Below, piece after piece: positions 43,461 to 64,000 of a DNA stretch of 64,000 nt. This DNA comes from Tepidiformaceae bacterium. Lineage in GTDB: Bacteria; Chloroflexota; Dehalococcoidia; Tepidiformales; Tepidiformaceae. The stretch is taken from the NCBI GenBank assembly GCA_965116915.1, contig OZ220739.1, positions 630,864 through 694,863 on the forward strand. Direction: 5' to 3'. Below the pieces are notes generated by a model, which made no database searches, was not told the origin of the DNA, and saw nothing but the letters and a program-made list of their open reading frames with translations. Positions within the stretch are counted from its first letter, which is position 1; every line of letters starts with the position of its first letter. The position numbers and the translations under genes are program-made.

Positions 43461-43655
43461 GTGCATATGGCAACGTCACCGGAACTGGGTGAGAGTGAAC
43501 TCGAGAAAGTTCGGGATCTCTTAGATCGCGCGACTGGGGAGGAGCCCGGCGCCCCCGAGTCCCCGCCAGCTGACCGCACATTGACCCTCTTGTCGAAGCG
43601 GGACGACTTGCGGACCCTGGTCGGGCGGATGATAGCCGATGCGCTTCTCGATTGA
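43461..43655 (+). CDS. Small hypothetical ORF (62-64 aa) leading the SMC-SIR2 operon
   Basis: GTG 43461 or ATG 43467. Its 3' end overlaps the ATPase ATG (43639) by 17 nt. Short and acidic, so its coding status is uncertain. Confidence 0.35.
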   Translation: MHMATSPELGESELEKVRDLLDRATGEEPGAPESPPADRTLTLLSKRDDLRTLVGRMIADALLD

Positions 43656-45990: not shown

Positions 45991-46952
45991 GCGAGGTACG
46001 TGCTCCGTCGGACATCTTCGGCGTGCCGTTCGTCCTCCGGAGACAGGATGCTGAGCAACTCGTCGACAGTCTTGGCCAGCTTTGGATCACCCAAACGGGT
46101 GAGCCGATGACCGGTCTCGACGAGGATCTCAAGCTCCTGTTCTCCAAGCTCTTTAATCCCAAGACAACTGGCGCTCGGCTCCGCGATGTCCTGAATTCTT
46201 TGCCGCCAGCGCCGATGGTCCGTTCTCGCTTCCTGAATCCTCCGCTGATTATCGAAGCCGGCCCGTCCACACTCGTGACCCCTGAGGGTCGGGCCGTATA
46301 CGACCTGCTAGGTAACTTGCTGCAGGAGTCGGACGAGGATCCGATCGGCCTCGATCCAATCGATGCATTTGCCTTGGTGAGCCTGACTCACCAACGTTAC
46401 CGGGAAGTAGGAGTGAAGCGGCTCGAGGACGCGGTCGGGCTCCTGGGGGGACGGGCGGAGGGGCTTCGGCTACCATCGATTGCACTCCTGCTGTTCCTTC
46501 TGGTGAACGGATCAACGTCTACAGCAACGGCCATCCGCAGACCGAGCGACAGTGATGAACTGAGCCGACTGGATGACGCCGTCGCGAAGGCCATTTCGGC
46601 ATTTGCCGACACTCTCAGTTCACGTGCGCGCGATCCGAGTCACTTCTCGCTTTACTCCGGATACGCGGTAACCGAAGCGCGGCGACGCCTCGGTCAGACT
46701 ATGGGTCCGACTCCCGACCAAATCTACGTGGATGACAGGCACCGGGACGCCGTGATTGAGCGCGTTGCCAGCGAGCTCCGGCGTAGTCAGCGCTCGCCTG
46801 AAACCCGGAACGTCATGGCTGCATTCGACAACCTCGTTTCAGCCTACCGAGAGGAGAGGCCGACCCTCGCATCGCTGGGTGTCACGCACGAGAGCCGTGT
46901 AGAAACAGCAAGACTCCGCGAGCAGTTGGAGCGCGCACTTGGAGACCCGTGA
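45987..46952 (+). CDS. Hypothetical protein (321 aa), middle gene of the SMC-SIR2 operon
   Basis: Translationally coupled on both sides (GTGA overlap upstream, 14-nt overlap downstream). No family recognised. Confidence 0.65.
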   Translation: MSEVRAPSDIFGVPFVLRRQDAEQLVDSLGQLWITQTGEPMTGLDEDLKLLFSKLFNPKTTGARLRDVLNSLPPAPMVRSRFLNPPLIIEAGPSTLVTPEGRAVYDLLGNLLQESDEDPIGLDPIDAFALVSLTHQRYREVGVKRLEDAVGLLGGRAEGLRLPSIALLLFLLVNGSTSTATAIRRPSDSDELSRLDDAVAKAISAFADTLSSRARDPSHFSLYSGYAVTEARRRLGQTMGPTPDQIYVDDRHRDAVIERVASELRRSQRSPETRNVMAAFDNLVSAYREERPTLASLGVTHESRVETARLREQLERALGDP

Positions 46953-48495
46953 TGTGCTGTGCCTGCTATCCGAGCTGCTAGGGGATCCGGAGGAGGACGA
47001 TCGCAACACATCCGTTGTGCCCGTTGTGATCGATGACTTCGCCGGACATGGCGATCTCGTGCGGGCCGCTGCGCACGCTGTCGGGGCTTCGCTAATCGTC
47101 GCCTCGGATGTCGTAGATGGGGTCCGTGGAAGACGCGATCACACGCTGAAGGCCCGCATCGAGGAGTACCTACGGGTTCCGCGTTCGGGGGGCGAAGACT
47201 CTCGAGTCTCCATCCTGGCGGACCAAGGCATCGTGCATGCGAGGATCGACGACCAGACCGAACTCGCGAGCAGATCCGAGAGAGAGGTTGCTGGGCTAGC
47301 TTCAGCTCTGTTCTCAGAAGAACTGCAGACGAGCAGCCTTGCGTTCATTGTCTACAACGAGACCGTACTGGACGACGAGTGGGCCGAAGCCATCTGGCGC
47401 CTCTTCGGCAGCATCGATGGGACGCGGTTCCGGGCGGTCAAGCGCTTCATCTTGCTCATTGAGCGATCTGGCGAGCACACGCCGGATCACCATCTTGACT
47501 CCGAGCCTACCGTCCAGTTCTTCGTTCGGTCGTCGGGACTGACGCGCCGGAAGCCGTGGCTCGTAGACCTTGCCGAAGTCCGCTACATAGCGGAGCAGGC
47601 TGCCAGCAATGGCCTCGTCCTGTTCCTCGGGGCCGGTTTCTCGAGTTCGTCGGGGCTTCCGCTCGGCAACACACTTCGCGACGATGCGCTGCGAGCATTC
47701 CTAGCTATGCCAGAGGCAGGGTTCGACGAGCTCGCTTCGGCGTTCTTCGAGTACCTCCGGGCCAACAGACGTCTGCTCGAGGTCGAGCATCAGATGCCAT
47801 CCGACGAGTTCAACAGCCAGCTCACGCTTGAGCGGGTCCTCCGCGAAGAGATCTGGAGGAGCGGTGCCGACGATAGTCCGACACTGCGTGGTTTCGAGAA
47901 CATGAACGACATTGCTTTGAAGAACAGAGGTCCCGCCGTCGCTGGCCTGCACAACGTCTTGAGGCTCATTCCCAGGACTGTCGTGATCACTGTGAACTTC
48001 GACACCCTCGTAGAGGCTGAGGACGGCGATGTGCACACGATGGTCACAGAGCAAGAGTTCAGGGACGGCCGGGACTACCTGGATACGTACCTCGGCGAAC
48101 CCGACAATCCCGTCCCCGTCTTGAAGCTCCATGGTTCAATTCGGTCGAGAGAGACGATCATTGCCACGGTCGACCAGACCGCTCAGGGTCTATCCACAGA
48201 GAAGGAAGACTGCATTCGTGCCGTCCTCGAGACCAACCGCAAGGTGCCATGGGTCTACGTCGGATACAGCATGCGCGACCCGGATCTTTGGGGCATTCTC
48301 GAATCCCGGCTCGTCGCTGATCGTGCCGACGAATACTGGGTTAGCCCATTCGAGGATCCGAACGCTTTCGAGTGGTCCGGGTTGCACCGGCAGTTTGGTC
48401 AAGATGGGCGGACGTTCTGGCAGAGATGCATCACGCTGACTGCCGATAGGTTCTTCGAGCAGCTCCTAGCTGCCTGGGCTGCACAGCACGACTAG
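46939..48495 (+). CDS. SIR2-family (SIR2_2-type) protein with a ~210-aa unknown N-terminal domain
   Basis: GLVLFLGAGFSSSSGLPLGNTL, VITVNFDTLVE and VLKLHGSIRS follow the defence-type SIR2 pattern (GAG.S...G.P ... N.D ... KLHGS). TTG start at 46939; alternatives lie nearby. Confidence 0.8.
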   Translation: METRDVLCLLSELLGDPEEDDRNTSVVPVVIDDFAGHGDLVRAAAHAVGASLIVASDVVDGVRGRRDHTLKARIEEYLRVPRSGGEDSRVSILADQGIVHARIDDQTELASRSEREVAGLASALFSEELQTSSLAFIVYNETVLDDEWAEAIWRLFGSIDGTRFRAVKRFILLIERSGEHTPDHHLDSEPTVQFFVRSSGLTRRKPWLVDLAEVRYIAEQAASNGLVLFLGAGFSSSSGLPLGNTLRDDALRAFLAMPEAGFDELASAFFEYLRANRRLLEVEHQMPSDEFNSQLTLERVLREEIWRSGADDSPTLRGFENMNDIALKNRGPAVAGLHNVLRLIPRTVVITVNFDTLVEAEDGDVHTMVTEQEFRDGRDYLDTYLGEPDNPVPVLKLHGSIRSRETIIATVDQTAQGLSTEKEDCIRAVLETNRKVPWVYVGYSMRDPDLWGILESRLVADRADEYWVSPFEDPNAFEWSGLHRQFGQDGRTFWQRCITLTADRFFEQLLAAWAAQHD

Positions 48496-49812
48496 CCGCT
48501 CGCTCAAGGCATGCTGGTGCCGAACACCATTATTGACCCACCTGGCACCGCGATGCCGGATAGTACTCACGTTCACGGGCCGCAAGCCGAGCTCTTGAGC
48601 AAGCTGCGCCAGCAGCCCAGGCGTGTCGATGTACACGCCGTAAGGCGCACTGTCACCAACTACGAGGGCGATCCGTGCGCCGGGCCGTACGCATTTGCGC
48701 ATGTTCACGAGCACGCGGCTCATACCTTCAAAGTATGGCCCGATCACCCGATCGTACTCCTTGCCTCGGGGCCGCCGCCTGCGTTCCGCCTCTAAGCGAC
48801 TGCTGAGAGATTCGAGGACCGATCCAGTGTGCGGTGCTATGGCAGCCACGCGCGCCATCGACTCAGAGGCCGCAGCACTGCGGGCCTGCTGAGTCGATGC
48901 CGTGAGCATCCCGGCTCTAACCCGCTCAACCATCTCGGACCAAGTGCGAGCTACCCCCCAAAAGTAGAGCTCAAGCCGGGTTGCATCAGCGTAGTCGAAG
49001 TTATTGAGGTAAGGGGGCGATGTCACGACTGCGTCGGCGGGTTCATCTCCGAGGACCCGAACCCAGTCCCCGAGTCGTCGAGCATCCCCGCGCAGCACAA
49101 TTGACCCTGACTCACGGGACGACTCGCGAAGGTCGGCCGCCATCCACTCCGCCCTTCGCAGAAACGCTCGCACCGGCTGGGCGATCCGTGGCTTCCTTCG
49201 GACCGCGGGGCGCTGGTAGGGCCAACGAACCTGGACGCTTGCGCAGTCCCGCAGAGCACCTAGCAGGGACCATTTGAGATACCGAGTTGTCGCTCTACGG
49301 GGATGCGCCTTCAATTGGTCCCGGATGCTGACCAGTTCGCGCAGGGAGTCCTCGTCGAAGCTGCGAGCCACCAGATCCGTCTCGCGCGAGATGTCCGCCT
49401 CAAGAATGTCGCAAGCAACGCGCTGCGCGTCGTCAACGATGCGCTCCGGCTTCGCGAAGGCCTGAGTCTTGAGCTGTGCCAACTCGGCAATCTCCGGGTG
49501 CACCTCGATACCGGCGTACCGGTATCCCTGCTCAGCCCCAGCTCTCCAGCCAGTTGCAGCGCCGACAAACGGATCAATGAGTAGATCACCGGGTCGTGCG
49601 GCCACAGCCTGTAGCGCAGCCCCGAGGGCTGTCGGCGAGAACCCTGCGGGATACCGAAACCAGCGATCGAAGGGCACCTGCCGCGGACCGTTGGAAGCTC
49701 CACCACTGCTTTTAAAATTCACCGCGGCGCTCCTAGTCCCGCCACGGCGAATAATATGGGATGCTCCGCGTTTCCTCCAGTCTGCAGCAAGAACCCCTGC
49801 ACCGTCCGTCAA
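48466..49812 (-). CDS. DNA methyltransferase (N6-adenine or N4-cytosine; motif I before motif IV)
   Basis: AdoMet motif LLIDPFVGAATGW and catalytic VVTSPPYLNNFDY. The 3' end overlaps the SIR2 gene 3' end by 30 bp (convergent). The start is uncertain (TTG 49812 or GTG 49722). Confidence 0.75.
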   Translation of the reverse strand: MTDGAGVLAADWRKRGASHIIRRGGTRSAAVNFKSSGGASNGPRQVPFDRWFRYPAGFSPTALGAALQAVAARPGDLLIDPFVGAATGWRAGAEQGYRYAGIEVHPEIAELAQLKTQAFAKPERIVDDAQRVACDILEADISRETDLVARSFDEDSLRELVSIRDQLKAHPRRATTRYLKWSLLGALRDCASVQVRWPYQRPAVRRKPRIAQPVRAFLRRAEWMAADLRESSRESGSIVLRGDARRLGDWVRVLGDEPADAVVTSPPYLNNFDYADATRLELYFWGVARTWSEMVERVRAGMLTASTQQARSAAASESMARVAAIAPHTGSVLESLSSRLEAERRRRPRGKEYDRVIGPYFEGMSRVLVNMRKCVRPGARIALVVGDSAPYGVYIDTPGLLAQLAQELGLRPVNVSTIRHRGARWVNNGVRHQHALSERLVVLCSPGS

Positions 49813-50440: not shown

Positions 50441-51883
50441 TTGGCTCTACTGAACCAAGACTTCGGGCTTCCTTTTGGCCAAATTGAGGTCGATTTTGTA
50501 GTTCCCGATCTCACTCAGGACTTGCCTCTCTGCATTGATCCTTTTCTGCTTTACCGTAGCCAAGATCCGGAGTTACGCAATCTTCACCAGCAAGTCATTA
50601 GCGTCTTTAATCACGGCATAGAACTCTTCAAGTTGGGCAAAACTCAGGACCTTGCTAGGCTAGTCCAGTTTCCGGAGGTTGATGAGATCGGCTTTGGCTA
50701 CTCTGAAGGGGCTATTCGTGGACGAGGTCTAGGCCAGACCATGAACGGTATCTTGGTCGAGCTTCTAGGAAGCGTTGGGGAGATATTTGATCGAGGGATT
50801 CGACATATCGAAGAGCTTCAGTTGCTTTCGGTTCGCATAGGGCCAGACCTTGTGAGCGACACGGTAGCCAACTTGATGAAGGATTTTCTTGTCCAATACA
50901 CACAAAGGCAATCCGAGCTGCACGGCATACCAGTCAGTTCGGGCGTGCCGGTAAATCACTTCTTTGACTTCGATAGTTTCGAGTGGTCAGACGGATACTT
51001 CGATCTGCCACGAAACCCCAACTCCGGGCTGCCGGTGCTCTTGGTACCCCGGCGTGTCGTCCGCCTACTTCCCTGGATAAACTATGCTGACTACCAACGG
51101 AATGAATTCCGCGAGTTCCTAAAGCCCAAGGCACCGCCGTCGCAGCGACGGCGACTGGAACCCGTGGGTGAACCGCTAGATCTTTCCTCCCGCGCAGGCA
51201 AGGCGACAACGTACAAGCCAGAGGTAGTCCGAATTACGCGTCGCAATCTTGAACTTGTCGACAAGTATGTTGAGCGTAAGGAGCGCGAGAGCGCAGGCGC
51301 CGAACCGACACTGCCTCCCGGTCGGTCCGAGACTGCCGCCGTAAGAGAGGAGGGGAACCGCCTGCTCGAGGAGCTTAGGCAGTTACCGCCGGGTCGGGAA
51401 GCTGCCACTGACTACCAGCAACACGTGCTCCGAATTCTGACGTTTGTCTTTGGGCCAGAGTTGACCGACGGGAGGCTTGAGGAGGCGACCGTGCACGGCA
51501 CGGAGCGCCGAGACATCATTTTCACAAACGAGTCGACCAAGTCGTTCTGGATGTATGTACGACAGCATCACGGATCCATTTTGCAAATGTTCGAATGTAA
51601 GAACACCAAAGGCCTGAATACGGCGGACCTGAATCAGACAGCAACCTACTTGGGCGCTCGATTGGGGACGCTTGGAATTGTTGTTACCCGGACAGCACCG
51701 GCAAAGAGTGTCTTGCTAAAGGCCTACTCGATTCATAACGACTCAGCGGGAGAAAGCCGAAAGACAATTCTCATCCTTTCAGACGATGATCTCGGCAGCC
51801 TAGTGCTGGCACGCCAACGGGGAGAGCCGCCGTCGAGGGTCGTTCAGAAGGTATACCGGGACTTCAAGCTCAGTTGCCAATAG
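50441..51883 (+). CDS. Hypothetical protein with a C-terminal PD-(D/E)xK nuclease-like motif (480 aa)
   Basis: TERRDIIFTNESTKSFWMYVRQHHGSILQMFECKNTKG gives a D ... E-x-K arrangement. TTG start. Divergent from the methyltransferase gene. Confidence 0.6.
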   Translation: MALLNQDFGLPFGQIEVDFVVPDLTQDLPLCIDPFLLYRSQDPELRNLHQQVISVFNHGIELFKLGKTQDLARLVQFPEVDEIGFGYSEGAIRGRGLGQTMNGILVELLGSVGEIFDRGIRHIEELQLLSVRIGPDLVSDTVANLMKDFLVQYTQRQSELHGIPVSSGVPVNHFFDFDSFEWSDGYFDLPRNPNSGLPVLLVPRRVVRLLPWINYADYQRNEFREFLKPKAPPSQRRRLEPVGEPLDLSSRAGKATTYKPEVVRITRRNLELVDKYVERKERESAGAEPTLPPGRSETAAVREEGNRLLEELRQLPPGREAATDYQQHVLRILTFVFGPELTDGRLEEATVHGTERRDIIFTNESTKSFWMYVRQHHGSILQMFECKNTKGLNTADLNQTATYLGARLGTLGIVVTRTAPAKSVLLKAYSIHNDSAGESRKTILILSDDDLGSLVLARQRGEPPSRVVQKVYRDFKLSCQ

Positions 51884-52144: not shown

Positions 52145-52942
52145 TCAACCTGCGCCGGCCAGCACTCCCTCGCGCTCGCGGTCCCGCGCCCACTCGAAGA
52201 GCGACAGCGTGGGAGCCTCACCGCGCCGCCCGCGCGGTGGCTCCTCCGGCTCCCCGGCCATGAACTCCGCCCACGAGAACAGCGACCGTTGCAGCCCCGG
52301 GGCTTCGTCGTCCACGATGGCCGCGACTGTCACCGTGGGCTCCGCCACCGGCGCCGGCTCGGGCGTACGCCAGCCCTCGTCGACCAGCAGCGCCTCGGCC
52401 TCGGCCGCTACCTGCTGGGCCTGAGCGAAGACCGACTCGACCGAGCCGGCGTCCTCCTCGCCCACGACGATCTTCCTGGCGAGGGCGAGCATGAGGTCGT
52501 CGCCGTTGTCCCCGTAGGCGGCGAGACCGTCCTCGGGCAACTCACCCTCGACGGCGAGCGACGACTGCAGCTTCTGCGCCACCAGCTTGAGGGCGTCCGC
52601 CTGCAGGGTGTTCCGGTATGCCATGAAGACGACCTGGACGGGCTCGGTCTGGCCGATGCGCCAGGAGCGCCGTGACGCCTGCCTCATCGTGTAGACCGAG
52701 TAGTCGGTCTTCGCCCATACGATAGTTAGGAACTCCACCAGGTCCACCCCGTTCTGCATCAACGGCGCCCTGCGAACCGCTCTCCAAGCTGCTGCTCCGA
52801 TGTTGCCTGCGTCGACGGCGGCTCCGATCTCACGCGCCTGCCCTTCCGGGCCTTGAACGCAGAGGATCAGCGCTGCCTCGTCTCCGCAGGGGCCGACCCC
52901 CAAAGGTGACGCAGCGCCCCATAGCCGACTCGGACGCTCCAC
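52145..52942 (-). pseudogene. 3' portion of an SNF2-like helicase (third copy), with no 5' half
   Basis: Downstream of the core (52694-52705) the translation DYSVYTMRQASRRSWRIGQTEPVQVVFMAYRNTLQADALKLVAQKLQ... is near-identical to the intact gene. Upstream of the core it is only loosely helicase-like (PLMQNGVDLVEFLTIVWAKT versus PRLVQTGLDLVDFPTIAWYET). The shared motif CTGTATGCGCCCTCTCGTGCGTTAA follows the stop, as it does after 6397. Confidence 0.8.
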
Positions 52943-53142
52943 ACGTCGACAACGTCGGGGTACCGCGACCGGAGATCACTGGCAGCCGCAAGCAGATCCT
53001 CTGCGACAGCCCAGCCGCCGCTGTTGACGTCGATGGCGACGTAATCGCCGTCGTGGTCGACCTCGACCTGAGCGCGAATGTAGCGCTCGTAGATCGCTTC
53101 TCCCAGACGGGCTGTCTCTTCGGTGGGTCGGCGCACGGCCAT
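52867..53142 (-). CDS. Small hypothetical protein (91 aa)
   Basis: ATG at 53142 within the longer ORF 52867-53430. The sequence MAVRRPTEETARLGEAIYERYIRAQVEVDHDGDYVAIDVNSGGWAVAEDLL... looks like a compact conserved small protein. Its 3' end overlaps the helicase-like ORF in another frame. Confidence 0.45.
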   Translation of the reverse strand: MAVRRPTEETARLGEAIYERYIRAQVEVDHDGDYVAIDVNSGGWAVAEDLLAAASDLRSRYPDVVDVWSVRVGYGALRHLWGSAPAETRQR

Positions 53143-53611
53143 GGCAACTCTCCCCTGACGAGGATAGCGCCCCCGGCAATCCCATCCAGCGCTGGTGTGA
53201 CGTATAGCTCCGTCATCTCGAGTCTCCAGGCAGGTGCTTCGAGCAGGACGACAGCTCCTGCACCGGGGACGCCGGCCGCTCCGCTCCGACACCAGCCCCA
53301 CCGTGGCCGTGTCGCAGCAACACAAGGACTGTCGGCCCCGAGGTGATGGCGGCCGCGCGCCTTCCTGGCCGGCGAACGAGTTGCCATCCTTGAGGCCGTG
53401 GCTCCGCTGGTCCGGTCTCTCGTCTTGCACGCGCTCCCAGCCCCTGGGCGTGGCTCGATTGGAGTCAAGCGGTCCTGGACGGCGCGTTCGGCAGTCGCTG
53501 GCTGGGGGCGGTCTTTGTAGCCGGCGAGATCGACGGTCCCCCGGTAGGCAAGACCCCCCCCGAAATCTTGGAAAACGTCCTATTGAGGAATTTTACTCAG
53601 TAGGGAGTATC

Positions 53612-54877
53612 ATGGTCCTGATGAACGCATTCCAACGCTCAGGCGTTGACACCCTGGCCGAACGTCTCGACGAACCCCCGAGACGGCTGATCGCCGTGTT
53701 CGGACCTCGCCAGACCGGCAAGACCACGATGGTTCGTCAGGCGCTGAGCCGGATTAATCGGCCGAGTCTGTATCTGGCTGTCGATGAACCGGAGTCCCGT
53801 TCTCCCCGCATCAGCGAGAGTGAGCCTTCGGGAGACACCGCGCCAATCGGTCAAGAGCGTGATGGGGCTTGGTTGGCCGGCATCTGGGAGGACGCTCGGC
53901 GGCGGGCGGAGCAGTCCCCCCAGGGCCTCGTGCTCGTGTTCGACGAGATCCAGAAGGTCCCCAACTGGTCCGACACCGTCAAGGGGCTGTGGGACGCCGA
54001 CCGCGCTCAGGGCTGCCCGCTTCATGTTGTCGTCCTCGGTTCCGCGCCGCTTCAGATCCAGTCGGGGTTGAGCGAGAGCCTCGCCGGCCGCTTTGAGTCG
54101 ATACGCGTCACGCACTGGTCGTTCCCTGAGATGTCCACGGCGTTCAACTTCACGCTCGACGAGTTCATCTTCTTCGGCGGCTACCCGGGGGCGGCAAGCC
54201 TCATCGCGGATGAAGAGCGCTGGCGGGACTACATCCTGTACGGGCTGGTTGAGCCGCACCTCGAACGCGACCTCCTCGCCATGACCCGGGTCGACAAGCC
54301 GGCACTGCTCAAGAACCTCTTTGAGCTGGGGGCCTCCTACTCCGGGCAGATCCTCTCGTACACCAAGATGACAGGGCAGCTTCAGGATGCCGGCAACACG
54401 ACGACGCTCGCGCACTACCTCGACCTCCTCTCCACGGCCGGCCTGCTCACGGGGTTGGAGAAGCACTCTGGCAGCGCACAGCGGCGCAGGCGGTCCAGTC
54501 CCAAGCTCAACGTGCTCAACACGGCCCTGATGACCGCTACCTCCGGCTACTCCTTCGCGGAGGCCAGGGCCGACCGCACCTTCTGGGGGAGACTGGTGGA
54601 GAGCACGGTCGGCGCCCACCTGGTCAATACCGCTCGCCCGGGGCTGGATGTCGGTTACTGGCGAGACGGTTCCGACGAGGTCGACTTCGTGCTGGGGCGC
54701 GCGGGCCGCGTGCGCGCGGTCGAGGTCAAGAGTGGCGACCGTCGCCCGAACGACCGTGCCCTGAGGGAGTTCGAGGGCAAGTTTCGGGCGCCGCCATCGC
54801 TCGTGGTTGGTGAGAACGCGATACCGCTCAACGAGTTCCTCTCCGCTCCCGCCTGGGATTGGTTCGAACAGCCATGA
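53612..54877 (+). CDS. AAA ATPase of the AAA_14/DUF4143 type
   Basis: Walker A FGPRQTGKTT, Walker B LVLVFDEIQKVPNW, and a C-terminal DUF4143-like region (VGAHLVN...GYWRDGSDEVDFVL...AVEVKSG). ATG at 53612 preceded by GGGAG. Confidence 0.8.
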   Translation: MVLMNAFQRSGVDTLAERLDEPPRRLIAVFGPRQTGKTTMVRQALSRINRPSLYLAVDEPESRSPRISESEPSGDTAPIGQERDGAWLAGIWEDARRRAEQSPQGLVLVFDEIQKVPNWSDTVKGLWDADRAQGCPLHVVVLGSAPLQIQSGLSESLAGRFESIRVTHWSFPEMSTAFNFTLDEFIFFGGYPGAASLIADEERWRDYILYGLVEPHLERDLLAMTRVDKPALLKNLFELGASYSGQILSYTKMTGQLQDAGNTTTLAHYLDLLSTAGLLTGLEKHSGSAQRRRRSSPKLNVLNTALMTATSGYSFAEARADRTFWGRLVESTVGAHLVNTARPGLDVGYWRDGSDEVDFVLGRAGRVRAVEVKSGDRRPNDRALREFEGKFRAPPSLVVGENAIPLNEFLSAPAWDWFEQP

Positions 54878-57800
54878 CGCACATCGTCGCGCGCACCTGC
54901 ACGGAGCTATCTCCGAACAGGGAGCGTCACGCTCCCGAGCCACAGCCCCAACCGCTGAGCGCCTACCGGGCCGAACCGGCGTATGTCCTGTTGGGCGACC
55001 CAGGTCTGGGAAAGACCACTGCCCTTCAAGGCGAATACGAGGCGATGGGAGAGTCCGCCTGCTTCATCACTGCCCGCAACTTCCTGACCCTCGATCCCGA
55101 CAGCCATCCGGAGTGGCGGGAGAAGACGCTCTTCATTGACGGCCTCGACGAGGTGCGTACGGGCTCCGCCGACGTGCGAACGCCCCTCGACGCCATCCGC
55201 GGCCGCCTGGACAGCCTTCGATGCCAATCCTTCCGGCTGTCCTGCCGGGAAGCCGACTGGTTGGGCGACAACGACCGGCGGGCACTGGAACTGGTGGCTC
55301 CAGGGCGCAGGGTCACGACCCTGCGGCTCGATCCCCTCACCGGCTCCGAAGTGAAGCAGATCCTCGCCGGCCACGAGAAGATCGACGACCCCCAGGCCTT
55401 CATCGACGAAGCGGAGAGCCGCGGCATTGACAGCCTCCTCGCCAATCCGCAGACCCTCAATCTGCTGGCCGATGTGGTGGGCGGGAAGGGAACGTGGCCC
55501 GAGAGCCGCCTCGAGACCTTCGAACTGGCATGTGGTGAAATGGTTAGGGAGCACAACGAGGAGCACTCGTTCGGGACTCAGCCACCGCCCCGGGACGAGC
55601 TGCTGGACGCCGCCGGCTACCTGTGCGCCGCTCAACTCGTGACGGGCGCCGCCGGGTTCTCCCTCGGCCCCGCAGAGGCCTCCGCTGACTGCATTCCCCT
55701 CAACGACTGTGACTACCCTGCTCCGGACGCCCTGCAGCATGCGCTGGCCACACGGCTGTTCAAGGCGGGCGAGGAGAGGCACTTCCTTCCGGTGCACCGC
55801 CATGTGGCGGAGTTCCTGGGTGCGCGTTACCTCGCCCAACGCATCGCCGGAGGCCTGTCGGCGCGACGCGTGCTGGCCCTGATCAGCGGTGCCGACGGGG
55901 TGGTGGTGACCGAGATGCGAGGGCTCTCGGGCTGGCTGGCGGCGCAGTGCGGCGACGCCCGGAGCCTCCTCATCGATCGGGACCCGGTAGGGGCCGCGCT
56001 GTACGGCGACATCCATGGCTTTTCGACCGAGGAGAAGGGCGCCCTCTTGAGGGCGCTTGGCCGGCGCGAGGTGCTCGGTCCCCTCTGGCGGGAGGTCGCC
56101 TCGTTCGAGATGGGAACCACCTTCGGTGCCCTCTCCTCTCCGGACATGGCGCCGGCGATCGACGCCATCCTGTCCGACCCGTCCCGCGATAGCGACCATG
56201 AAGGGCTCGTCCGGTTCTTGCTGATCCTGCTGTTGCAGGGCTCCCCTGACGCCAGGCTGGCTCCACGCCTGCTCTCCGTGGCACGGGACGAGAGCTGGCC
56301 GCCTCGAGTGAACTCCTTCGCCCTCGATGCGTTCCTCCGCGTCGCGAGCGGCGGCGCCGACCACACCGCCGAACTCAGGGGCCTGTTGGATGCGGTTCAC
56401 GACGGCGCTGTCCCGGACCCGGACCACGAGATGAGGGGCGCACTGCTGAGCCACCTCTATCCGGGGGAGGTCTCCGCGTCCAGCGTCTGGGACCACCTGA
56501 TTGAACGCGGCACCAGCCATTTGGTCGGACACTACTGGTCGTTCTGGAACCAGCACCTCCTGGGTCGGTCGTCAGACCGGGACGTGGGTGACCTTCTCGA
56601 CAGTCTCTACCAGCATCGATCCGACGTGGTCCCCGCCCTGGAGTCTCACCACTGGGAGTCCCTTCCCCTGGACCTGCTGGCTCGGGGACTGGAAGCCCAG
56701 GGGGACAGCGTCCCGCTACCGCGCCTCTCCAACTGGCTACGTGCAGCGGCACCGCCGCTCCGGTGGAGCTTCGGCCCCGACAACGAGTCCCAGCGCCGGG
56801 TCCGTGGCTGGCTGGAGCGGCGCCCCGAGATCCAGAAGGCCGTGCTCATGGAGGGGCTGAAGCGGTGCCCCGACGGCGATCGCTACCACCACGAGTCCTA
56901 CGAGGCCTGGGGCGCGCTTCACGGGAGCTCGCTGCCACCTGACTTCGGGCTGTGGTGCCTGAACCGGGCCGTCGACCTTGCGCCTGTGCACGCCAGGGCA
57001 GCGGAGGATCTCCTCTTGAGGGCGTTTCAAGCCTGGAGGGAGAAGCGCGACGACGAGGGCCTGTCCCTTCCTGTCCTGACGGACGGTGTGCGTGGGCATG
57101 CGCCACTGGAGGCGAGGCTGGCGGCCCTCGTCGAGGGCATGGTGTCCTCCGAAGCGGAGGCGGTGCGCGACAGGACTGAGCAGGACGAGGCAAGGGACGA
57201 ACAGGCACGCGAACGCGAGGAGGACATCGCCTACGTACGCTCCCATGCCGAGGCCCTTCGCGAGAACCGAGCCCCCCTGTGGGTCGTCGGCGAACTGGGC
57301 AGGGCGTACTTTCTCTTCCCACGCGGCCCGGCGACGCATGCTTCTCCCGTAGCGGCCCTCTCGGCATTTCTGGGTGACGACCCAACCCTGGTCGAAGCGG
57401 CCTTGGCCGGCCTGCGAGAGACCTTGTGGCGGAACGACGTGCCGGACGCTGACGAGGTCGTCCGGCTCAAGGAGACGTCCATGCGTCACCGCCTTGACTT
57501 CGCGGTTCTCGCCGGCCTGGACATCCTCCATCGGGACGATCCCACCCGGCTCGAGGACATCACCCAGGATCAGATCGAGACGGCTCTGGCGTTCTACTAC
57601 TGCACACCGGCGGGGTTTGCGGCCACCCCGGCGTGGATCGAGGAGTGGACGGAACGCGTTCCCGACGTGGTGGCGGACGTAGCAGCCCGATGCACGCTCT
57701 CCGCAATCCGGCGCGGCGATGGCTACTCTCCGGCCCTTGAGACCATCAGGCGCCTTGGCGGCCACCCATCCCTGAGGCATGCCACCGCTCTCAGGCTCCT

Positions 57801-58962
57801 TGAAGGGGTGCCGGCCGGAGCGGGCCTGAAGGCGCTGGACACCCTTGACAGTCTGCTCTGGGTCGCTCTCGCCGATCCCGACCGGTCGGCCCTTCTCGAC
57901 CTCGTCGGCGCGAAGCTCTCCCTCAAGAGCATGGGGGTGTCTCAGCGAGTGCGCTGGCTGGCTGCAGGCGCTATCGCCGCCCCGGAAGCCTATGCCGCGG
58001 AGTTGAAGACCTTTGTCGGTGAGGGCCAGCGACGCGTCCGGGCACTGGCGGCCTTCTTCGACTCCCGTGACGCCATGGAGCCCCTGCCGTTCCCGAGCGA
58101 GGAGCGGTGCGCCCCGGTCCTTGAGGCCCTCATCTCTCTCATGGGCCGCTCGTTCGCACGAGACGAGCCCCTCGGGTCTGGCGTCGTGACCATCGAGATG
58201 ACGACCGCTGGACACATCAGGCGCCTCATCCAGCAACTGGCCTCGCTCCCCGGAGACGACGCCCTGCAGGCGTTGGACTCACTCGTTGCCGACGCCGGGC
58301 TCGTCCACTGGCTCGATCACCTCGAGCAGGCGCGCGACGACCAGCGAGTCGTTCACCGGGATGCAGCCTACGGCCACCCGGACCTTGGTCAGTTCAACCG
58401 TGCCTTGAAGGAAGGGGAGCCGGCCAACGTCGGTGACCTTGCCGCACTGCTCCACGACCGACTGACCGCGGTGGCGTCAGGCCTTCGTGCCACCAACACG
58501 GATGACTGGCGGCAGTACTGGAATGAAGACCCGCAAGGTCGACCAGAGAAGCCCAAGCATGAGGAGTCCTGCAGGGACGCACTCCTTTCCCAACTGCGCA
58601 GGACACTCCCGGACGGTGTGGATGCACAGCGCGAGGGGCAGCACTCGGGCGACAAGCAGTCCGACATCCGCGTCTCCTTTGAGGGGTTTAGCGTGCCGGT
58701 AGAGATCAAGAGGGACACGCACCCTAAACTCTGGAGCGCCATCAGGAATCAGCTGATCCAGCAGTACACGCGCGACATCGAAACGGGTGGGTACGGCATC
58801 TACCTGGTGTTCTGGTTCGGTGAGGGGAGCGTGCAATCTCCGCCGACCGGAACGCGCCCGACAAGTCCCCAGGAGTTGCAGGAGCGCCTGGAAGCGACGT
58901 TGACGGAGGACGAAGCCCGCAAGATTGAAGTGTTCGTGGTTGACGTCAGCCGGGTGACCTAG
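54874..58962 (+). CDS. STAND/NACHT-like NTPase with helical repeats and a C-terminal PD-(D/E)xK-like domain (1362 aa)
   Basis: ATG 54874 overlaps the upstream TGA (ATGA). Walker A LLGDPGLGKTT and Walker B TLFIDGLDEV. About 900 aa of Leu/Ala-rich helical repeats. The C-terminus has SDIRVSFEGFSVPVEIKRD (about 58660-58720). Confidence 0.8.
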   Translation: MTHIVARTCTELSPNRERHAPEPQPQPLSAYRAEPAYVLLGDPGLGKTTALQGEYEAMGESACFITARNFLTLDPDSHPEWREKTLFIDGLDEVRTGSADVRTPLDAIRGRLDSLRCQSFRLSCREADWLGDNDRRALELVAPGRRVTTLRLDPLTGSEVKQILAGHEKIDDPQAFIDEAESRGIDSLLANPQTLNLLADVVGGKGTWPESRLETFELACGEMVREHNEEHSFGTQPPPRDELLDAAGYLCAAQLVTGAAGFSLGPAEASADCIPLNDCDYPAPDALQHALATRLFKAGEERHFLPVHRHVAEFLGARYLAQRIAGGLSARRVLALISGADGVVVTEMRGLSGWLAAQCGDARSLLIDRDPVGAALYGDIHGFSTEEKGALLRALGRREVLGPLWREVASFEMGTTFGALSSPDMAPAIDAILSDPSRDSDHEGLVRFLLILLLQGSPDARLAPRLLSVARDESWPPRVNSFALDAFLRVASGGADHTAELRGLLDAVHDGAVPDPDHEMRGALLSHLYPGEVSASSVWDHLIERGTSHLVGHYWSFWNQHLLGRSSDRDVGDLLDSLYQHRSDVVPALESHHWESLPLDLLARGLEAQGDSVPLPRLSNWLRAAAPPLRWSFGPDNESQRRVRGWLERRPEIQKAVLMEGLKRCPDGDRYHHESYEAWGALHGSSLPPDFGLWCLNRAVDLAPVHARAAEDLLLRAFQAWREKRDDEGLSLPVLTDGVRGHAPLEARLAALVEGMVSSEAEAVRDRTEQDEARDEQAREREEDIAYVRSHAEALRENRAPLWVVGELGRAYFLFPRGPATHASPVAALSAFLGDDPTLVEAALAGLRETLWRNDVPDADEVVRLKETSMRHRLDFAVLAGLDILHRDDPTRLEDITQDQIETALAFYYCTPAGFAATPAWIEEWTERVPDVVADVAARCTLSAIRRGDGYSPALETIRRLGGHPSLRHATALRLLEGVPAGAGLKALDTLDSLLWVALADPDRSALLDLVGAKLSLKSMGVSQRVRWLAAGAIAAPEAYAAELKTFVGEGQRRVRALAAFFDSRDAMEPLPFPSEERCAPVLEALISLMGRSFARDEPLGSGVVTIEMTTAGHIRRLIQQLASLPGDDALQALDSLVADAGLVHWLDHLEQARDDQRVVHRDAAYGHPDLGQFNRALKEGEPANVGDLAALLHDRLTAVASGLRATNTDDWRQYWNEDPQGRPEKPKHEESCRDALLSQLRRTLPDGVDAQREGQHSGDKQSDIRVSFEGFSVPVEIKRDTHPKLWSAIRNQLIQQYTRDIETGGYGIYLVFWFGEGSVQSPPTGTRPTSPQELQERLEATLTEDEARKIEVFVVDVSRVT

Positions 58963-59501
58963 AGCGATCGAGGGGTAGGGTCCGGTGGCTGATGCCCGCA
59001 GTCGGGCTGACAGGAGGAGCGGACGATCGAGCAAGGCGCAGCGTCCCTTGATGAGGTCGGGAGGAAACTGCAGGCCCTCGGGCCTGCCGATGTACGCCTG
59101 CTGGTGCACCGAGATGCTGATGAACTCTCCCTGGTCACGGTTGTCCTCAGCGCGGGCCTGGACACCGCCGGCCTGGCCGACAAGACCTACGACTGCGGCG
59201 AGGTCGCGCGGCCCGTCGACGATCCACTTTGGGGTGCTCCGTGTCGTCGCCCAGCTTGCGGCGGAGCCTACTGACGATCGTGCGCATGGGGCGGGTGTCG
59301 CCGTCGCTCCTATCGCCCCAGACGCGCTTCAGCAGGTGCTGGTGTCCGCATCCGCCCGGCGTCGGCCGGGTAGTGGAGTCCTACCCACGCCGTGTGCGCT
59401 TAGCGTCATTCTGCGGCAGGCGGGGCCGTGTCTGCGCGGTCACTGCTATGGGTGACCCACCCGAACGGCGGGGTACTGCGCTCACACGCCCGGCTATGGT
59501 G

Positions 59502-59708
59502 CTACCCCACTTCTTGTTCGGCGAGTTGATGCTCCACCCAGGTCGACAGTCGCCGCCACTCCGCGATGCTCATCCTCATGGAGCGCTGATAGTCGGCGCC
59601 GGGGTAGTGCGTGTTGCTGCGGCTCAAGAGGTAGATCAGAATCTCTTGACGATCGACCTTCACGCGGAGATCCCAAACCGGAATCGCCTTCGCCGTCAGT
59701 TCGGCCAT
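59502..59708 (-). CDS. Hypothetical small protein (68 aa)
   Basis: ATG at 59708 within ORF 59502-59993. No family recognised. Confidence 0.35.
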   Translation of the reverse strand: MAELTAKAIPVWDLRVKVDRQEILIYLLSRSNTHYPGADYQRSMRMSIAEWRRLSTWVEHQLAEQEVG

Positions 59709-59956
59709 GCTCACCCCCGCCGGAGCTCGCGTTGGCCTCACGCCGTCGCACCTCCGGTTTAAGTCGTTCTTCGGGTGGCATCCTATCACTCCATTGCGGC
59801 CCCATCGGCTCCCAGCAACCCCGCCCGGGATCCCTCTCGGTCGGGTCGCGTCCCCCTGGGCATGCGGAAGCCGACGCAGGGCGATAAAATGCGCGAGCGG
59901 GGCCGCCGGTGTGCGCCGCATCTGGCTTGAGAGCTTGCAGAGCCGGAGTCGTGACC

Positions 59957-60181
59957 ATGACCGACCTTCTACAGCAGGCCTTCGACAGGGCATCGGAGTT
60001 GCCGCGAGGCGAGCAGGATGCGTTCGCCCGGTTCCTACTGGCCGAGCTGGATGCGGAGCAGCGCTGGGACGAACTGCTCGACCGCCCCGAGTCGCAGGAC
60101 ATGCTGGAGCGGATGGCGGACGAAGCGATCGGGGCTCACCGGGCGGGGCGGACGGAGCCTCTGAATCTGAGCCAATTGTAG
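59957..60181 (+). CDS. Type II antitoxin (partner of a RelE/ParE-superfamily toxin)
   Basis: MTDLLQQAFDRASELPRGEQDAFARFLLAELDAEQRWDELL is typical of short helical addiction-module antitoxins. It lies directly upstream of the toxin remnant. Confidence 0.6.
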   Translation: MTDLLQQAFDRASELPRGEQDAFARFLLAELDAEQRWDELLDRPESQDMLERMADEAIGAHRAGRTEPLNLSQL

Positions 60182-60183
60182 GG

Positions 60184-60452
60184 GTGCGTTCCTACACGGT
60201 GGCGAGCTTCTGGCGCGCCTATCGCCAACTCCCGGACGCCGTGAAGCAGCAGGCGTGCGACGCGTACCGGTCTTCCTGATGAACCCGCAACATCCGGGCC
60301 TCAACTTCAAGCGCGTGGGAAGACGACGACCGGTGTATTCGGTGCGCGTGAGCAGGAACCATCGGGCACTGGGCATTCTCGAGGACGGCGATATCGTCTG
60401 GTTCTGGATTGGCCCACACGACGAGTACGACCGGTTGCTGAGGCGCGCATGA
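60184..60452 (+). pseudogene. RelE/ParE-superfamily toxin interrupted by a frameshift
   Basis: Frame 1 reads VRSYTVASFWRAYRQLPDAVKQQACDAYRSS-stop (60184-60279). Frame 2 continues FLMNPQHPGLNFKRVGRRRPVYSVRVSRNHRALGILEDGDIVWFWIGPHDEYDRLL (to 60452). Together they form one typical toxin. Confidence 0.7.
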
Positions 60453-60580
60453 CGCCTTACCGGCGTAAGCATCGCGCCGCACGAGAGGCGCACGGCCCGG
60501 ACAGCAAGAAAGGCTCCACACAGGGACGGGAGCCGGGGACACCGCCGTAACCGGCGATGCCCCCGCGTCCGTCCCGCCTG

Positions 60581-62830
60581 TCAGGCGGCCAGCGCCCCCT
60601 CCTGTTCCCGCTCAAGCGCCCACTCGAAGAGGGAGAGCGTGGGAGCCTCGTCGCGGCGCTTGCGCCTCGGCGGCTCCTCCGGCTCCCCGGCCAGGAACTC
60701 AGCCCACGAGAACAGCGACCGCTGAGGCTCCGAGTCCACGGCCTCCGCGACGGCCTCGGCGGCCACCGTGGCACTGGCACCTACCGGCTCTGGCTCCGGC
60801 GCGTGCCAGCCCTCATCGACCAGCAGTGCCTCGGCCTCCGCCGCAACCTGCTGAGCCTGGGCGAAGACCGACTCCACCGAGCCGGCATCCTCCTCGCCCG
60901 CGACGATCTTCCTCGCCAGCGCAAGCATGAGGTCGTCGCCCTCGTCCCCGTAGGCGGCGAGGCCGTCCTCCGGAAGCTCGCCCTCGACGGCCAGCGAGGA
61001 CTGCAGCTTCTGCGCCACGAGCTTGAGGGCGTCCGCCTGCAGGGTGTTCCGGTAGGCCATGAAGACGACCTGGACGGGCTCGCTCTGGCCGATGCGCCAG
61101 GAGCGCCGCGATGCCTGCCGCATGGTGTAGACGGAGTAGTCCGTCTCGTACCAGGCAATCGTAGGGAAGTCCACGAGGTCGAGGCCTGTCTGCACCAACC
61201 GCGGGTGGCAGACGAGCACGTCGACGCCCTCCTCAACGCGCTTCGCCACCCACGCCTCGCGGCGCTCGGGCGGAACGGCGTCGGCCTTCATCACCGCGAC
61301 GTTGAAGCCGTGGCGGGAGAGGAACTCCTCCATGCGCCCCGTGATGTCGCGCGTGCCCGTGTGGGTGGCGTAGACGAGCACCCGCCGCCCCGCCAGCCGC
61401 TCGGCGGCGACGAGGTCGACGAGCGCCCGCTCCTTCGGGTAGAGCCGCTCCTCGGAGAGGGGCGGCACCTGCACGAGCAGCTCCTCGCTCTCCGGGTCGA
61501 AGACCGTCTCGCCCCGGGTGCAGCCGTCCGGGTAGGCGAGGAGCGTCTGCAGATAGGTGGCCAGCAGGCGCTTCGAGCCCTTCGCGAGAAGGTCCGTCAG
61601 CGCCGCCCTGAGCGTCCGGAAGAGCTCGTCGTAGGCGCTCCGCTGGGAGAAGCCGGTGCCGTCCGCTTCCGTCTCCATGTCGGAGAGGAGCACGCGCTCC
61701 TCGTAGGGCGGGAGCCCGGCAGCGACGTCCGAGAGCCTGAGGAAGACGGAGTTGCCGATGAGGTGGAAGAGGGCGGCGGGGGCGAGCCCCGGGCGCTCGC
61801 GGATGACCTTGCGGTACTTCCGCCTGCGGCTCGTGCGGCCGTCCTCGAGGGACTCGCCGTCGTCGCGCCCGATGGTGTGCTCGACGAAGCCGTAGCGCTC
61901 GATCCAGCGGCTCTCCTCCCCGCGCCCGAACTCACCCCGGATCTCCGGGCTGAACCGGTAGAGGAGGTGGAAGAGCGTCGAGGAGTAGCCCCCCATGAGC
62001 GTGCCGCTCAGGCTGAGGGACTTGCCGCAGGCGTCGGCGAGGATGCCGGCGGCGATGCCCTGGGCGGAACCCCTTCCTTTGTATTCATGGGCCTCGTCCC
62101 CGATCAGCAGGTCGAAGAAGCCCCGCAGGTGGTGCTTCACGTAGTCGCTGAGCGGGTAGCGCTTCGGCCCCGAAGGGTCCGCCTTCCAGAGGGTGGAGCC
62201 GCACTCGTCACAGGTGCGCTTCCTGCGGGCGAGGTCCTTCTGCGTGAGGGGCAGCCCGTCCTTGTCGACGATCGGCTCGAAGCAGTTCGGGCAGCAGGGC
62301 ACCCGGAACGGTTCGAGGGTTTCCTCGTTGCGGACGAGCCTGCCGTCGGCCGTCGCCCAGCGCTCAACCACCGCCGGTAGCCAGCGGTAGGAGAGCTTCG
62401 CGCGTTCCCTGGACATGACCGCGAAGAGCGGCCCTGGCCCGTGCGAGAGGCGCAGCTTCTCGAGGTCGGTGATGGAGGCGACGACGGCGGCGCGGGCGTC
62501 GGGCACCGTCTCCTCCACCTCCCGCTTCCACTTGCGGGTGAGGTGGGGCGGGCAGAGGACGAGGATGCGGCGGAAGCCGGCCAGGTGGGCGGCGGAGGCC
62601 GCGATGAACGTCTTGCCCGTGCCCATCTCCCCGACGACGGTGGTGCCGCGGTGTTCCTCGAGGGAGAGGGCGGCGCCGCGGATGGCGTCGGCCTGCGCCC
62701 CCAGGGGCGTGCGCAGCAGGTGCGGCAGGGGCTTCCCGCAGTCGGAGGGCCGGTAGCGGGGTGGGTAGGACTCCACCACCCGTTCGGCGATGGCGTCGCG
62801 GTAGGTGTCGATGAATTCAGCCAGGTCCAT
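60581..62830 (-). CDS. SNF2-like helicase with a Zn-ribbon insert (750 aa, intact)
   Basis: ATG 62830 preceded by GGAGAAGGAG. Walker A GEMGTGKT, LIGDEAHEYKG, CCPNC...CDEC insert, motif VI QASRRSWRIGQ. The ORF upstream of 62830 is Arg/Gly/Pro-rich and was not called. Confidence 0.88.
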   Translation of the reverse strand: MDLAEFIDTYRDAIAERVVESYPPRYRPSDCGKPLPHLLRTPLGAQADAIRGAALSLEEHRGTTVVGEMGTGKTFIAASAAHLAGFRRILVLCPPHLTRKWKREVEETVPDARAAVVASITDLEKLRLSHGPGPLFAVMSRERAKLSYRWLPAVVERWATADGRLVRNEETLEPFRVPCCPNCFEPIVDKDGLPLTQKDLARRKRTCDECGSTLWKADPSGPKRYPLSDYVKHHLRGFFDLLIGDEAHEYKGRGSAQGIAAGILADACGKSLSLSGTLMGGYSSTLFHLLYRFSPEIRGEFGRGEESRWIERYGFVEHTIGRDDGESLEDGRTSRRRKYRKVIRERPGLAPAALFHLIGNSVFLRLSDVAAGLPPYEERVLLSDMETEADGTGFSQRSAYDELFRTLRAALTDLLAKGSKRLLATYLQTLLAYPDGCTRGETVFDPESEELLVQVPPLSEERLYPKERALVDLVAAERLAGRRVLVYATHTGTRDITGRMEEFLSRHGFNVAVMKADAVPPERREAWVAKRVEEGVDVLVCHPRLVQTGLDLVDFPTIAWYETDYSVYTMRQASRRSWRIGQSEPVQVVFMAYRNTLQADALKLVAQKLQSSLAVEGELPEDGLAAYGDEGDDLMLALARKIVAGEEDAGSVESVFAQAQQVAAEAEALLVDEGWHAPEPEPVGASATVAAEAVAEAVDSEPQRSLFSWAEFLAGEPEEPPRRKRRDEAPTLSLFEWALEREQEGALAA

Positions 62831-63036
62831 GGTGTGTCTCCTTCTCCTGTGAGGGACGACACCACGACCTGGACGCACTGAGCCCCCAGCAGCAGCCGGG
62901 GACAAGTGCGCGCAGGCTGCTGGAGGCGTCCCCGGTGAGGTCGTTGGTGCGAGGTTGCCGGTTGCTTGGCGGACCTCGTATTTCCGGATCGGCGTCGACC
63001 CGTCGGGAGCCGCCAACTGAAGGCGGCTCGAAGAAA

Positions 63037-64000
63037 TCAGGCGGCGATGTCGGTGACCTGGCCGGTGTCCAGGTCGAGGGCGACGACGGTGGTGAGGAGA
63101 CGCTCGCGAAAAGTCTCCTTCGTGGGTGTGGTCTCGACGAGGTGCATCTCTTTCGAGGTGCGCCCCTTGACGAGGATGCGGCTGTCTCCGGCCTCCAGCT
63201 GGAGGTTGTCGAGGAAGCCCGCCGCCACGAGCATGGCCAGGTGGCCGCGCCGCAGCGGCATGAGCGGTCGCGTGCGCTGGTCCTGGGCGGGCCAGAGCAG
63301 GTCGGTGACGGCCGTGCTCGCCCAGAGCCCCGAGCGCCTCGCCTCGTCCGCCGCCGCCACCGGGTCGACGGTGCGGGTCGCGAAGAGCACGTCCCCCGCG
63401 GGCGTGGCCGAGGCCAGGTAGAGGGGGTAGCGCCGGGGAGCGAGCTCGGGAGCCTCTCCCGCCGCCCACCCGTGGATGCGCTCCTCGGCATGGGCGTCGA
63501 GGAAGATTTCACCCTTGCGGTAGCCCATCAGGACGACCTGGTCGTAGGCCTCGCGCTCCGGCTCGGGGAAGGCCCAGCAGTCGAGGCGCGCGAAGTGGGA
63601 GGCGAGGTACCTCGCCGACACCGCCAGCCGCTGCCGGGGCACGACGAGGACGAGCAGGCCGTCCTCCGCCAGGTAGCGGGTGCAGTGGGTGAGGAAGCTG
63701 TGCTCGACGCGCTTCTCCTCGCCCGAGTCCCAGTCATAAGGAGGGTTGAGGTAGAGGAGCCCGAAGGCGCCGTTGGCGATCGAGGTGGCGAAGAGGTCCG
63801 TCCCGAGCACGTGGTCGAGGCGGCTCTTCGCCATCTCGGCGCGCTCGGTGTGCAGTTCCACCCCGTACGTCTCCACGTCGGCCGCGTGTGGCTTCCTGAG
63901 GGCGGCCGCCAGCCGCACGAGGGCATCGCCCTCGCCGCAGCAAGGGTCGAGAACGCGGAGCGTTTCGTCCTTGCGGGCGTAGCCCGCGGGCGGCTGGATC
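63037..64000 (-). CDS. DNA methyltransferase (NPPY type), 5' end beyond the window
   Basis: GLLYLNPPYDW catalytic motif. The frame stays open to the window edge (..CCGEGDALVRLAAAL..). Lies 207 bp upstream of the helicase on the same strand. Confidence 0.8.
   Translation of the reverse strand, partial: IQPPAGYARKDETLRVLDPCCGEGDALVRLAAALRKPHAADVETYGVELHTERAEMAKSRLDHVLGTDLFATSIANGAFGLLYLNPPYDWDSGEEKRVEHSFLTHCTRYLAEDGLLVLVVPRQRLAVSARYLASHFARLDCWAFPEPEREAYDQVVLMGYRKGEIFLDAHAEERIHGWAAGEAPELAPRRYPLYLASATPAGDVLFATRTVDPVAAADEARRSGLWASTAVTDLLWPAQDQRTRPLMPLRRGHLAMLVAAGFLDNLQLEAGDSRILVKGRTSKEMHLVETTPTKETFRERLLTTVVALDLDTGQVTDIAA

Follow-up and report, generated by a model that had tools for sequence, protein, structure and literature searches.

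Lee et al. (2026, PMC12803255) merged the antiphage receptors Erebus, Hypnos and bNACHT64 into a single type, Avs10, whose members sense the major capsid protein of phages and respond with effector-dependent cell death; another paper of 2026 terms the mechanism of Erebus "currently unclear". The family names EruA and HyoA appear to denote the genes of two systems of van den Berg et al. (2024), Erebus and Hypnos, a link read from the names; a literature search returned no paper using EruA, HyoA or EruB as names for the defence system. A second family, PDC-S01, is an ATPase fused to a PD-(D/E)xK domain. It was put forward as a single-gene phage defence candidate by a guilt-by-embedding approach (bioRxiv 10.1101/2024.01.29.577857) and is reported as the fourth most common prokaryotic defence candidate, with about 39,000 detected instances in bacteria and archaea (PMC12988326). 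Members of both families are found side by side in a stretch of 64,000 nucleotides (nt) from a Tepidiformaceae bacterium (contig OZ220739.1, positions 630,864 to 694,863), called the window hereafter. The pair is read here, with moderate confidence, as a two-gene antiphage module composed of an Erebus/Avs10-type receptor and a cognate ATPase-nuclease partner, the role of the partner being deduced from genomic data. Both components exist free-standing, and in one large, horizontally spread clade they are locked into a translationally coupled operon.

The two genes are encoded on the forward strand of the window. Gene 1 (53612..54877, ATG start, TGA stop) specifies a 421-residue ATPase with AAA_14 and DUF4143 domains that corresponds to the PADLOC candidate PDC-S01, and gene 2 (54874..58962, ATG start, TAG stop) a 1362-residue Erebus-like (EruA-like) NACHT STAND protein. 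An earlier note on this DNA had described an ATPase gene joined by an ATGA overlap to a STAND gene; both reading frames are present as described, and stop and start codon share the 4 nt 54874..54877 (+ strand, junction agccATGAcg), an arrangement that makes for translational coupling. Because the two proteins derive from the same mRNA, with a conserved 4-nt overlap, they would be made together. Gene 1 has a further in-frame ATG at 53621, where the alignment of most homologs begins, so that its start lies at either 53612 or 53621. The intergenic leader on its 5' side (53470..53611, +) carries a GGGAG Shine-Dalgarno-like motif at 53604-53608, read from the sequence; a consensus scan for promoters and terminators over 52900-60600, leader included, found none. 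The guanine-cytosine (GC) content around the locus is 65-68%, and long spurious open reading frames are abundant on the other strands. Neither a long open reading frame nor a 4-nt overlap is therefore remarkable alone, the former being common at 66% GC and the latter in operons; gene 1 and gene 2 are taken as real genes because they have homologs.

The pairing is conserved well beyond this genome. The forward scan took one genome per species and covered 80 loci, the closest of 545 confirmed relatives of gene 2. These relatives are 40-73% identical to gene 2 and come from more than 10 phyla, with lineages that include Dehalococcoidia, Latescibacterota, Acidobacteriota, Acidimicrobiia, Gemmatimonadota, Rhodothermales, Opitutales, Nitrospinota, Tectimicrobiota and Gammaproteobacteria. 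A homolog of gene 1 (52-86% identity) lies directly upstream on the same strand in 76 of the 80 loci. The junction is a 4-nt overlap (ATGA or GTGA) in 70 of these 76 and a 1-nt overlap (TGATG) in 3 more. The earlier note had proposed a two-component system and suggested looking for co-occurrence of the two genes; both counts support that proposal. The distance matrices of the two proteins are correlated (Mantel r 0.85, a value reached in 0 of 999 permutations), a signal that either co-transfer or shared vertical descent could produce. Conservation is higher in the ATPase (mean p-distance 0.36) than in the receptor (0.55). Two genomes hold the pair twice, with a separate ATPase for each receptor. 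When a neighbour-joining tree is rooted on the solitary homologs from proteobacteria, the paired proteins group in one clade; the four loci without a partner (L043, L047, L052 and L061) make up one nested subclade, which argues for a single secondary loss of the ATPase.

Of the four partner-less loci, L043 and L047 were scanned for neighbouring genes; mobile-element and defence genes lie alongside, namely a resolvase, an OLD-family AAA_21/TOPRIM nuclease, a DDE transposase and a Replic_Relax protein. At locus L028 (4758-5998) the gene-1 homolog is recovered in two tblastn segments with an early stop, and the EruA-like gene downstream is intact; by its sequence, this homolog is probably a frameshifted pseudogene, and the locus may represent partner loss in progress. 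Paired-specific features within gene 2 were sought and set aside, as they amount to no more than 6 scattered positions, and partner-less relatives share the N-terminal RTCTE motif. The gene-2 tree does not keep the phyla apart; the gammaproteobacterial L006, for instance, falls within a Dehalococcoidia clade. Many of the metagenome-assembled genomes behind the 80 loci bear names that suggest sponge symbionts (Poriferisocius, Entotheonella and APA_/RHO_/IRC_ bins), habitat being judged from names only. On these two grounds the pair seems to have spread horizontally within a habitat.

On its sequence, gene 2 is a member of the already described Erebus (EruA)/Avs10 family and not an unknown STAND protein. 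It matches the NCBIfam model NF058535 (antiphage_EruA) with 904.1 bits in a single collinear stretch (residues 26-1359 against profile positions 16-1318 of 1318); the match to HyoA is weaker (171 bits). More than 4500 homologs were found at E<=1e-5, and among the 120 listed most are full length, at about 1350 residues. No match at E<=1 was obtained with Pfam (NACHT model included) or PADLOC, and a sequence search of the PDB with the gene-2 profile returned only ribosome-recycling-factor coiled coils over residues 737-819, judged to be compositional. A scan of viral contigs with the gene-2 alignment gave no relatives, and a search of Escherichia coli genomes for PGAP-annotated EruA and its neighbours gave no match.

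AlphaFold2 models cover residues 1-480 and 1120-1362 of gene 2. The NACHT NTPase module (54979..55863, +; about residues 36-330) is delimited by the model, by Foldseek and by its motifs: Walker A, GDPGLGKTT (54994-55020, +; residues 41-49), and Walker B, LFIDGLDEV (55129-55155, +; residues 86-94), which is of the DGLDE type with a second acidic residue. All 85 sequences compared share K47, D89, D92 and E93. The N-terminal model, built from a 13-sequence alignment, has a predicted local distance difference test score (pLDDT) of 81 and a predicted template modelling score of 0.81. Its best Foldseek match is NLRC4 (4kxf, E 1.7e-9, template modelling (TM) score about 0.5); NLRP9, the NACHT of NLRP3, NAIP5 and the bacterial Avs4 (E 1.5e-5) are matched as well. 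These matches, together with the DGLDE Walker B, identify gene 2 as a genuine NACHT STAND protein, as the earlier note had called it, and all four motifs quoted there (GDPGLGKTT, LFIDGLDEV, SDIRVSF and VPVEIKRD) occur in the translation. The middle region (55864..58548, +; about residues 331-1225) is the presumed helical sensor and the most variable part of the protein. It is helical within both modelled ends, and mean pairwise identity over residues 481-1120 is 33-40%, vs. 63% in the nucleotide-binding domain and 60% in the nuclease core. Such high variability is what would be expected of a sensor.

The C-terminal domain (58549..58959, +; residues 1226-1362) is PD-(D/E)xK nuclease-like, with E1230, D1264, E1277, K1279, Q1293 and Y1298 as its motif residues. 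The model of residues 1120-1362 (pLDDT 78 overall, 84-92 in the core) has an alpha-beta-beta-beta-alpha-beta core, composed of helix 1230-1244, strands 1250-1253, 1265-1269 and 1272-1280, helix 1286-1298 and strand 1308-1314. E1230 is located on the first helix, D1264 at the start of β2 and E1277-x-K1279 on β3; the motif formed by D1264 and E1277-x-K1279 is kept in 84 of 85 sequences, solitary EruA-like proteins included. The PDB matches listed by Foldseek are mostly PD-(D/E)xK nucleases (Hjc, Can2, Nt.BspD6I, PspGI, McrC, Bax1 and Mus81); Hjc (2wiz) is matched with a probability of 0.99 and a root-mean-square deviation of 3.9 over 90 columns. The predicted nuclease fold thus draws on topology, motif placement and the uniformity of the matches rather than on a strong score (best E 5.8e-3), and in this form it bears out the nuclease-like domain proposed from the letters alone. 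The layout had been presented there as inverted with respect to known antiviral STAND proteins. The order itself, NACHT first and nuclease last, holds; its novelty does not, since solitary EruA proteins have it too and it is a trait of the whole Erebus family.

Gene 1 is confirmed as a DUF4143-type AAA ATPase by two Pfam matches above their gathering scores. AAA_14 covers residues 24-174 (E 9.9e-23, 81 bits, gathering cut-off 27) and DUF4143 residues 218-375 (E 1.2e-25, 90.5 bits, gathering cut-off 28.1). In PADLOC the protein matches the PDC-S01 model PDLC04791 nearly end to end (4e-160, 530.8 bits, residues 7-418 against profile positions 2-394 of 395), as well as six further PDC-S01 models; NCBIfam offers no named family for it. 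The P-loop ATPase domain (53681..54133, +) contains the Walker A motif GPRQTGKTT and the Walker B motif LVLVFDEIQ. The DUF4143 region (54263..54736, +) ends in a PD-(D/E)xK-like motif, E356-x-D358 ... E371-x-K373. Both sets of residues, K37/T38 and D111/E112 of the Walker motifs and E356, D358, E371 and K373 of the nuclease-like motif, are conserved in essentially all of 82 paired and 72 solitary homologs. The paired ATPases differ from the solitary ones at eight positions (V12, P23, G125, R131, P215, R268, Y313 and A320) and retain the ATPase and nuclease motifs. A PDB sequence search with gene 1 gave P-loop matches only, and a search with a profile of its nuclease region gave no match.

Taken as an antiphage module of the Erebus/Avs10 kind, which the locus very probably is, the pair can be given a tentative mechanism by analogy with characterised Avs10. 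In gene 2, the NTPase at the N-terminus would be the switch, the long and rapidly evolving helical region the sensor and the C-terminal PD-(D/E)xK nuclease the effector. The trigger bound by the sensor would be a conserved structural protein of the phage, the HK97-fold major capsid protein being the most likely one; its binding would release autoinhibition and allow the NACHT modules to oligomerise with ATP. The C-terminal nuclease domains, thereby clustered, would cut up DNA and the infection would be aborted. That the two proteins function together is likely, and the genomic data suggest that they form a complex. Within it, the role of the gene 1 ATPase may be that of a co-effector that is driven by ATP and engages DNA, or that of a gatekeeper of the receptor. 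The choice of co-effector or gate within a complex, over inhibitor or independent system, can only be made tentatively. More speculative still is the idea that the DUF4143 ATPase is an obligate subunit of the receptor, forming a hetero-complex with the NACHT protein and either gating its activation or, after a phage protein has been sensed by the receptor, itself destroying DNA in an ATP-driven manner. If true, this would be the first two-component Avs/NLR-type receptor in bacteria, where NLR stands for the nucleotide-binding leucine-rich-repeat receptors of animals, and the first function assigned to PDC-S01.

Several findings weigh against the reading of the pair as a two-gene antiphage module. 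With 904.1 bits, gene 2 is under the 1000-bit equivalog cut-off of NF058535, and the paired relatives tested score 849-930 bits, all below 1000. Because of this score and of the variable sensor, a capsid trigger for gene 2 is an extrapolation. The structural matches of its C-terminal domain are statistically modest, none reaching an E-value of 1e-3. The nuclease-like domains of the two proteins have no detectable relationship (hhalign), and the proposal that they are paralogs forming a heterodimer was dropped at a probability of 0.4%. Furthermore, each component works, or at least persists, alone elsewhere. No ATPase partner accompanies the EruA-like genes that were inspected on plasmids of Bradyrhizobium, Vibrio, Pantoea and Ralstonia; the protein of Bradyrhizobium pCW1_1, at 1189.6 bits, is above the EruA cut-off and is thus a bona fide, solitary EruA. 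The partner-less subclade keeps intact EruA-like genes with their conserved motifs. A representative of PDC-S01 tested alone gave no protection against T4, T5 or T7 (PMC12881386). In the reverse test, comprising 59 metagenome loci that have a relative of gene 1 (46-64% identity) and at least 600 nt of downstream sequence, an EruA-like gene follows in 5 of 59, and most gene-1 relatives at 46-55% identity are solitary. A sixth locus, L091, has an EruA-like gene within 582 nt downstream. The identity of the EruA-like partners found in this way goes down to 30-37%. In the remaining loci the solitary gene-1 relatives have no consistent downstream neighbour: other recurrent partners were considered and rejected, as the downstream genes vary (a secreted glycosidase-like protein, a membrane protein and similar), and an overlapping open reading frame of 828 residues in L093 looks like a high-GC artefact.

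These solitary forms lend some weight to the explanation that two independent defence genes merely travel together, with a self-sufficient or selfish PDC-S01 lodged upstream of an Erebus-like gene and the overlap reflecting compact packing without interaction. PDC-S01 is indeed defined as a single-gene candidate and is found embedded within other defence systems. Close relatives of gene 1 are solitary in Coxiella, Thermus and Bacteroides plasmids as in most of the metagenome loci, EruA-like proteins are solitary elsewhere, and the partner was lost in one subclade. Chance embedding, however, would not leave 70 of 76 junctions with an overlap of exactly 4 nt, in loci at 40-73% identity spread over more than 10 phyla, nor would it yield co-divergence at r 0.85 or paired-specific residues in the ATPase, nor preserve a private ATPase copy for each paralog within one genome. 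Independence of the two genes is consequently considered unlikely.

The relation between the two proteins could also resemble that of a toxin and its antitoxin, with the upstream ATPase, made first and in excess, keeping the nuclease-bearing STAND protein inactive until infection. The order of the genes, regulator first and killer second, and their 4-nt overlap are reminiscent of many toxin-antitoxin operons, and the ATPase evolves more slowly than the receptor (0.36 vs. 0.55, as above). However, solitary EruA-like proteins and the partner-less subclade maintain intact genes and catalytic motifs without a guard, STAND proteins are normally autoinhibited by themselves (PMC12803255), and the ATPase retains a nuclease-type motif of its own that a pure inhibitor would not need. 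This explanation is accordingly held to be quite improbable, and cooperation of receptor and ATPase in a single antiphage module is still the preferred one.

The genomic context is that of a defence island, made up of helicases, SIR2, AAA_21, a type II methyltransferase, PDC-M36A and a protein with TPR and PIN domains. Upstream of the pair, a 1278-residue TPR-repeat protein (32538-36374, -) contains the PIN-TPR-GreABC domain, a component of the predicted TPR-GreAB-C-PIN conflict system. It is followed by a 1707-residue fusion of a RecQ-like DEAD/Helicase_C helicase with a UvrD-type helicase (36922-42045, -), which has strong PADLOC matches to DpdF, PsyrT and GajB models and adjoins a Hypoth_Ymh (AbiD/F-like) gene (42294-43070). 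Three consecutive overlapping genes (43639-48495, +) encode a 783-residue AAA_21/AriA-like ATPase, a 321-residue protein without a family match and a 518-residue SIR2_2 protein; this trio could be a three-gene defence system and is, as a whole, unmatched in PADLOC. A type II DNA methyltransferase gene (48466-49812, -) adjoins the gene for the candidate defence protein PDC-M36A (50441-51883, +; 1.7e-70). Downstream of the pair is an SNF2-like helicase gene (60581-63469, -), with a DUF6094 methyltransferase alongside in the island.

The pair itself is flanked by a direct repeat (52156-52646 and 60586-61082, 77-90% identity, spacing about 8.43 kb). The left copy is a truncated, diverged duplicate of the 3' end of the SNF2-like helicase gene, and the pair lies between the copies. 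This repeat-flanked cassette suggests an insertion or a recombination between two related elements. A large serine recombinase (Resolvase, Recombinase and Zn_ribbon_recom domains) is encoded at 20546-21946 (+). GC content is about 0.70 at either end of the window and ranges over 0.54-0.68 between about 20 and 60 kb; the island may be an integrated element. The lowest values (0.54-0.56) occur in a patch at 27000-30000 with a 510-residue ResIII/DEAD helicase gene (28143-29675, -); this patch is likely a separate recent acquisition. That the pair is not primarily antiviral and serves instead as maintenance, addiction or DNA-processing cargo of an integrative element is very improbable: the cassette between diverged copies of a helicase 3' end, the serine recombinase, and the resolvases and transposases next to partner-less relatives would all fit, but antiphage activity has been demonstrated by experiment for Erebus, Hypnos and Avs10 proteins, defence genes abound in the neighbourhood, the viral contigs scanned hold no relative, and carriage on mobile elements is typical of defence systems and therefore no alternative to defence.

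Both the receptor family and the ATPase family are known, and their conserved coupling appears to be undescribed; no description of it was found in the literature searched, which did not cover the original Erebus and bNACHT reports. Current tools would call this locus a lone PDC-S01, because the NCBI cut-off for EruA misses the paired clade and PADLOC v2 sees gene 1 only. With EruA of Erebus (NF058535), gene 2 shares collinearity over its full length, the same order of NACHT, helical region and nuclease-like domain, and the same Walker A, DGLDE Walker B and C-terminal E...D...ExK...Q...Y motif; its identity to the bona fide EruA of Bradyrhizobium pCW1_1 is about 30%. In contrast to the proteobacterial plasmid genes examined, which are solitary, the clade of gene 2 has an overlapping ATPase gene upstream. 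Likewise, gene 1 has the domain make-up of PDC-S01 and matches its model over the full length, but PDC-S01 is defined and counted as a single gene, whereas gene 1 is the first gene of a conserved two-gene operon. The DUF4143 ATPases of this family, abundant candidates without known function, thereby gain a defined and conserved partner.

Among better characterised systems, McrBC offers a parallel, as a P-loop ATPase gene is coupled there to a PD-(D/E)xK nuclease protein and McrC (6ut6_G) is one of the structural matches of the gene 2 C-terminus. This is an analogy only, without sequence relationship, and in the present pair both proteins carry an NTPase and a nuclease-like motif. The Avs1-4 (AVAST) proteins, of which Avs4 has a structure (PDB 8dgf), combine a STAND NTPase, a large helical sensor for a conserved phage protein and a nuclease-type effector, and their NTPase module is similar to that of gene 2. 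However, such STAND proteins typically place the effector at the N-terminus and the sensor at the C-terminus, whereas the nuclease-like domain of gene 2 is C-terminal, only about 35 residues precede its NTPase, and a second gene is present. Structurally, the first 480 residues of gene 2 are best matched by the animal NLRs NLRC4, NLRP3, NLRP9 and NAIP5 (E 1.7e-9 to 1e-4, TM score about 0.5), which have in common with gene 2 the NACHT arrangement of nucleotide-binding, helical and winged-helix domains. Identity to them is 9-14%, and gene 2 lacks their leucine-rich repeats, CARD and PYD, having a helical sensor and a nuclease instead. The characterised Avs/NLR-like receptors of bacteria are usually presented as one protein that does both the sensing and the killing; the coupled clade, which has kept its partner across more than 10 phyla, suggests that in bacteria, as with the animal NLRs, accessory machinery can be recruited to the receptor.

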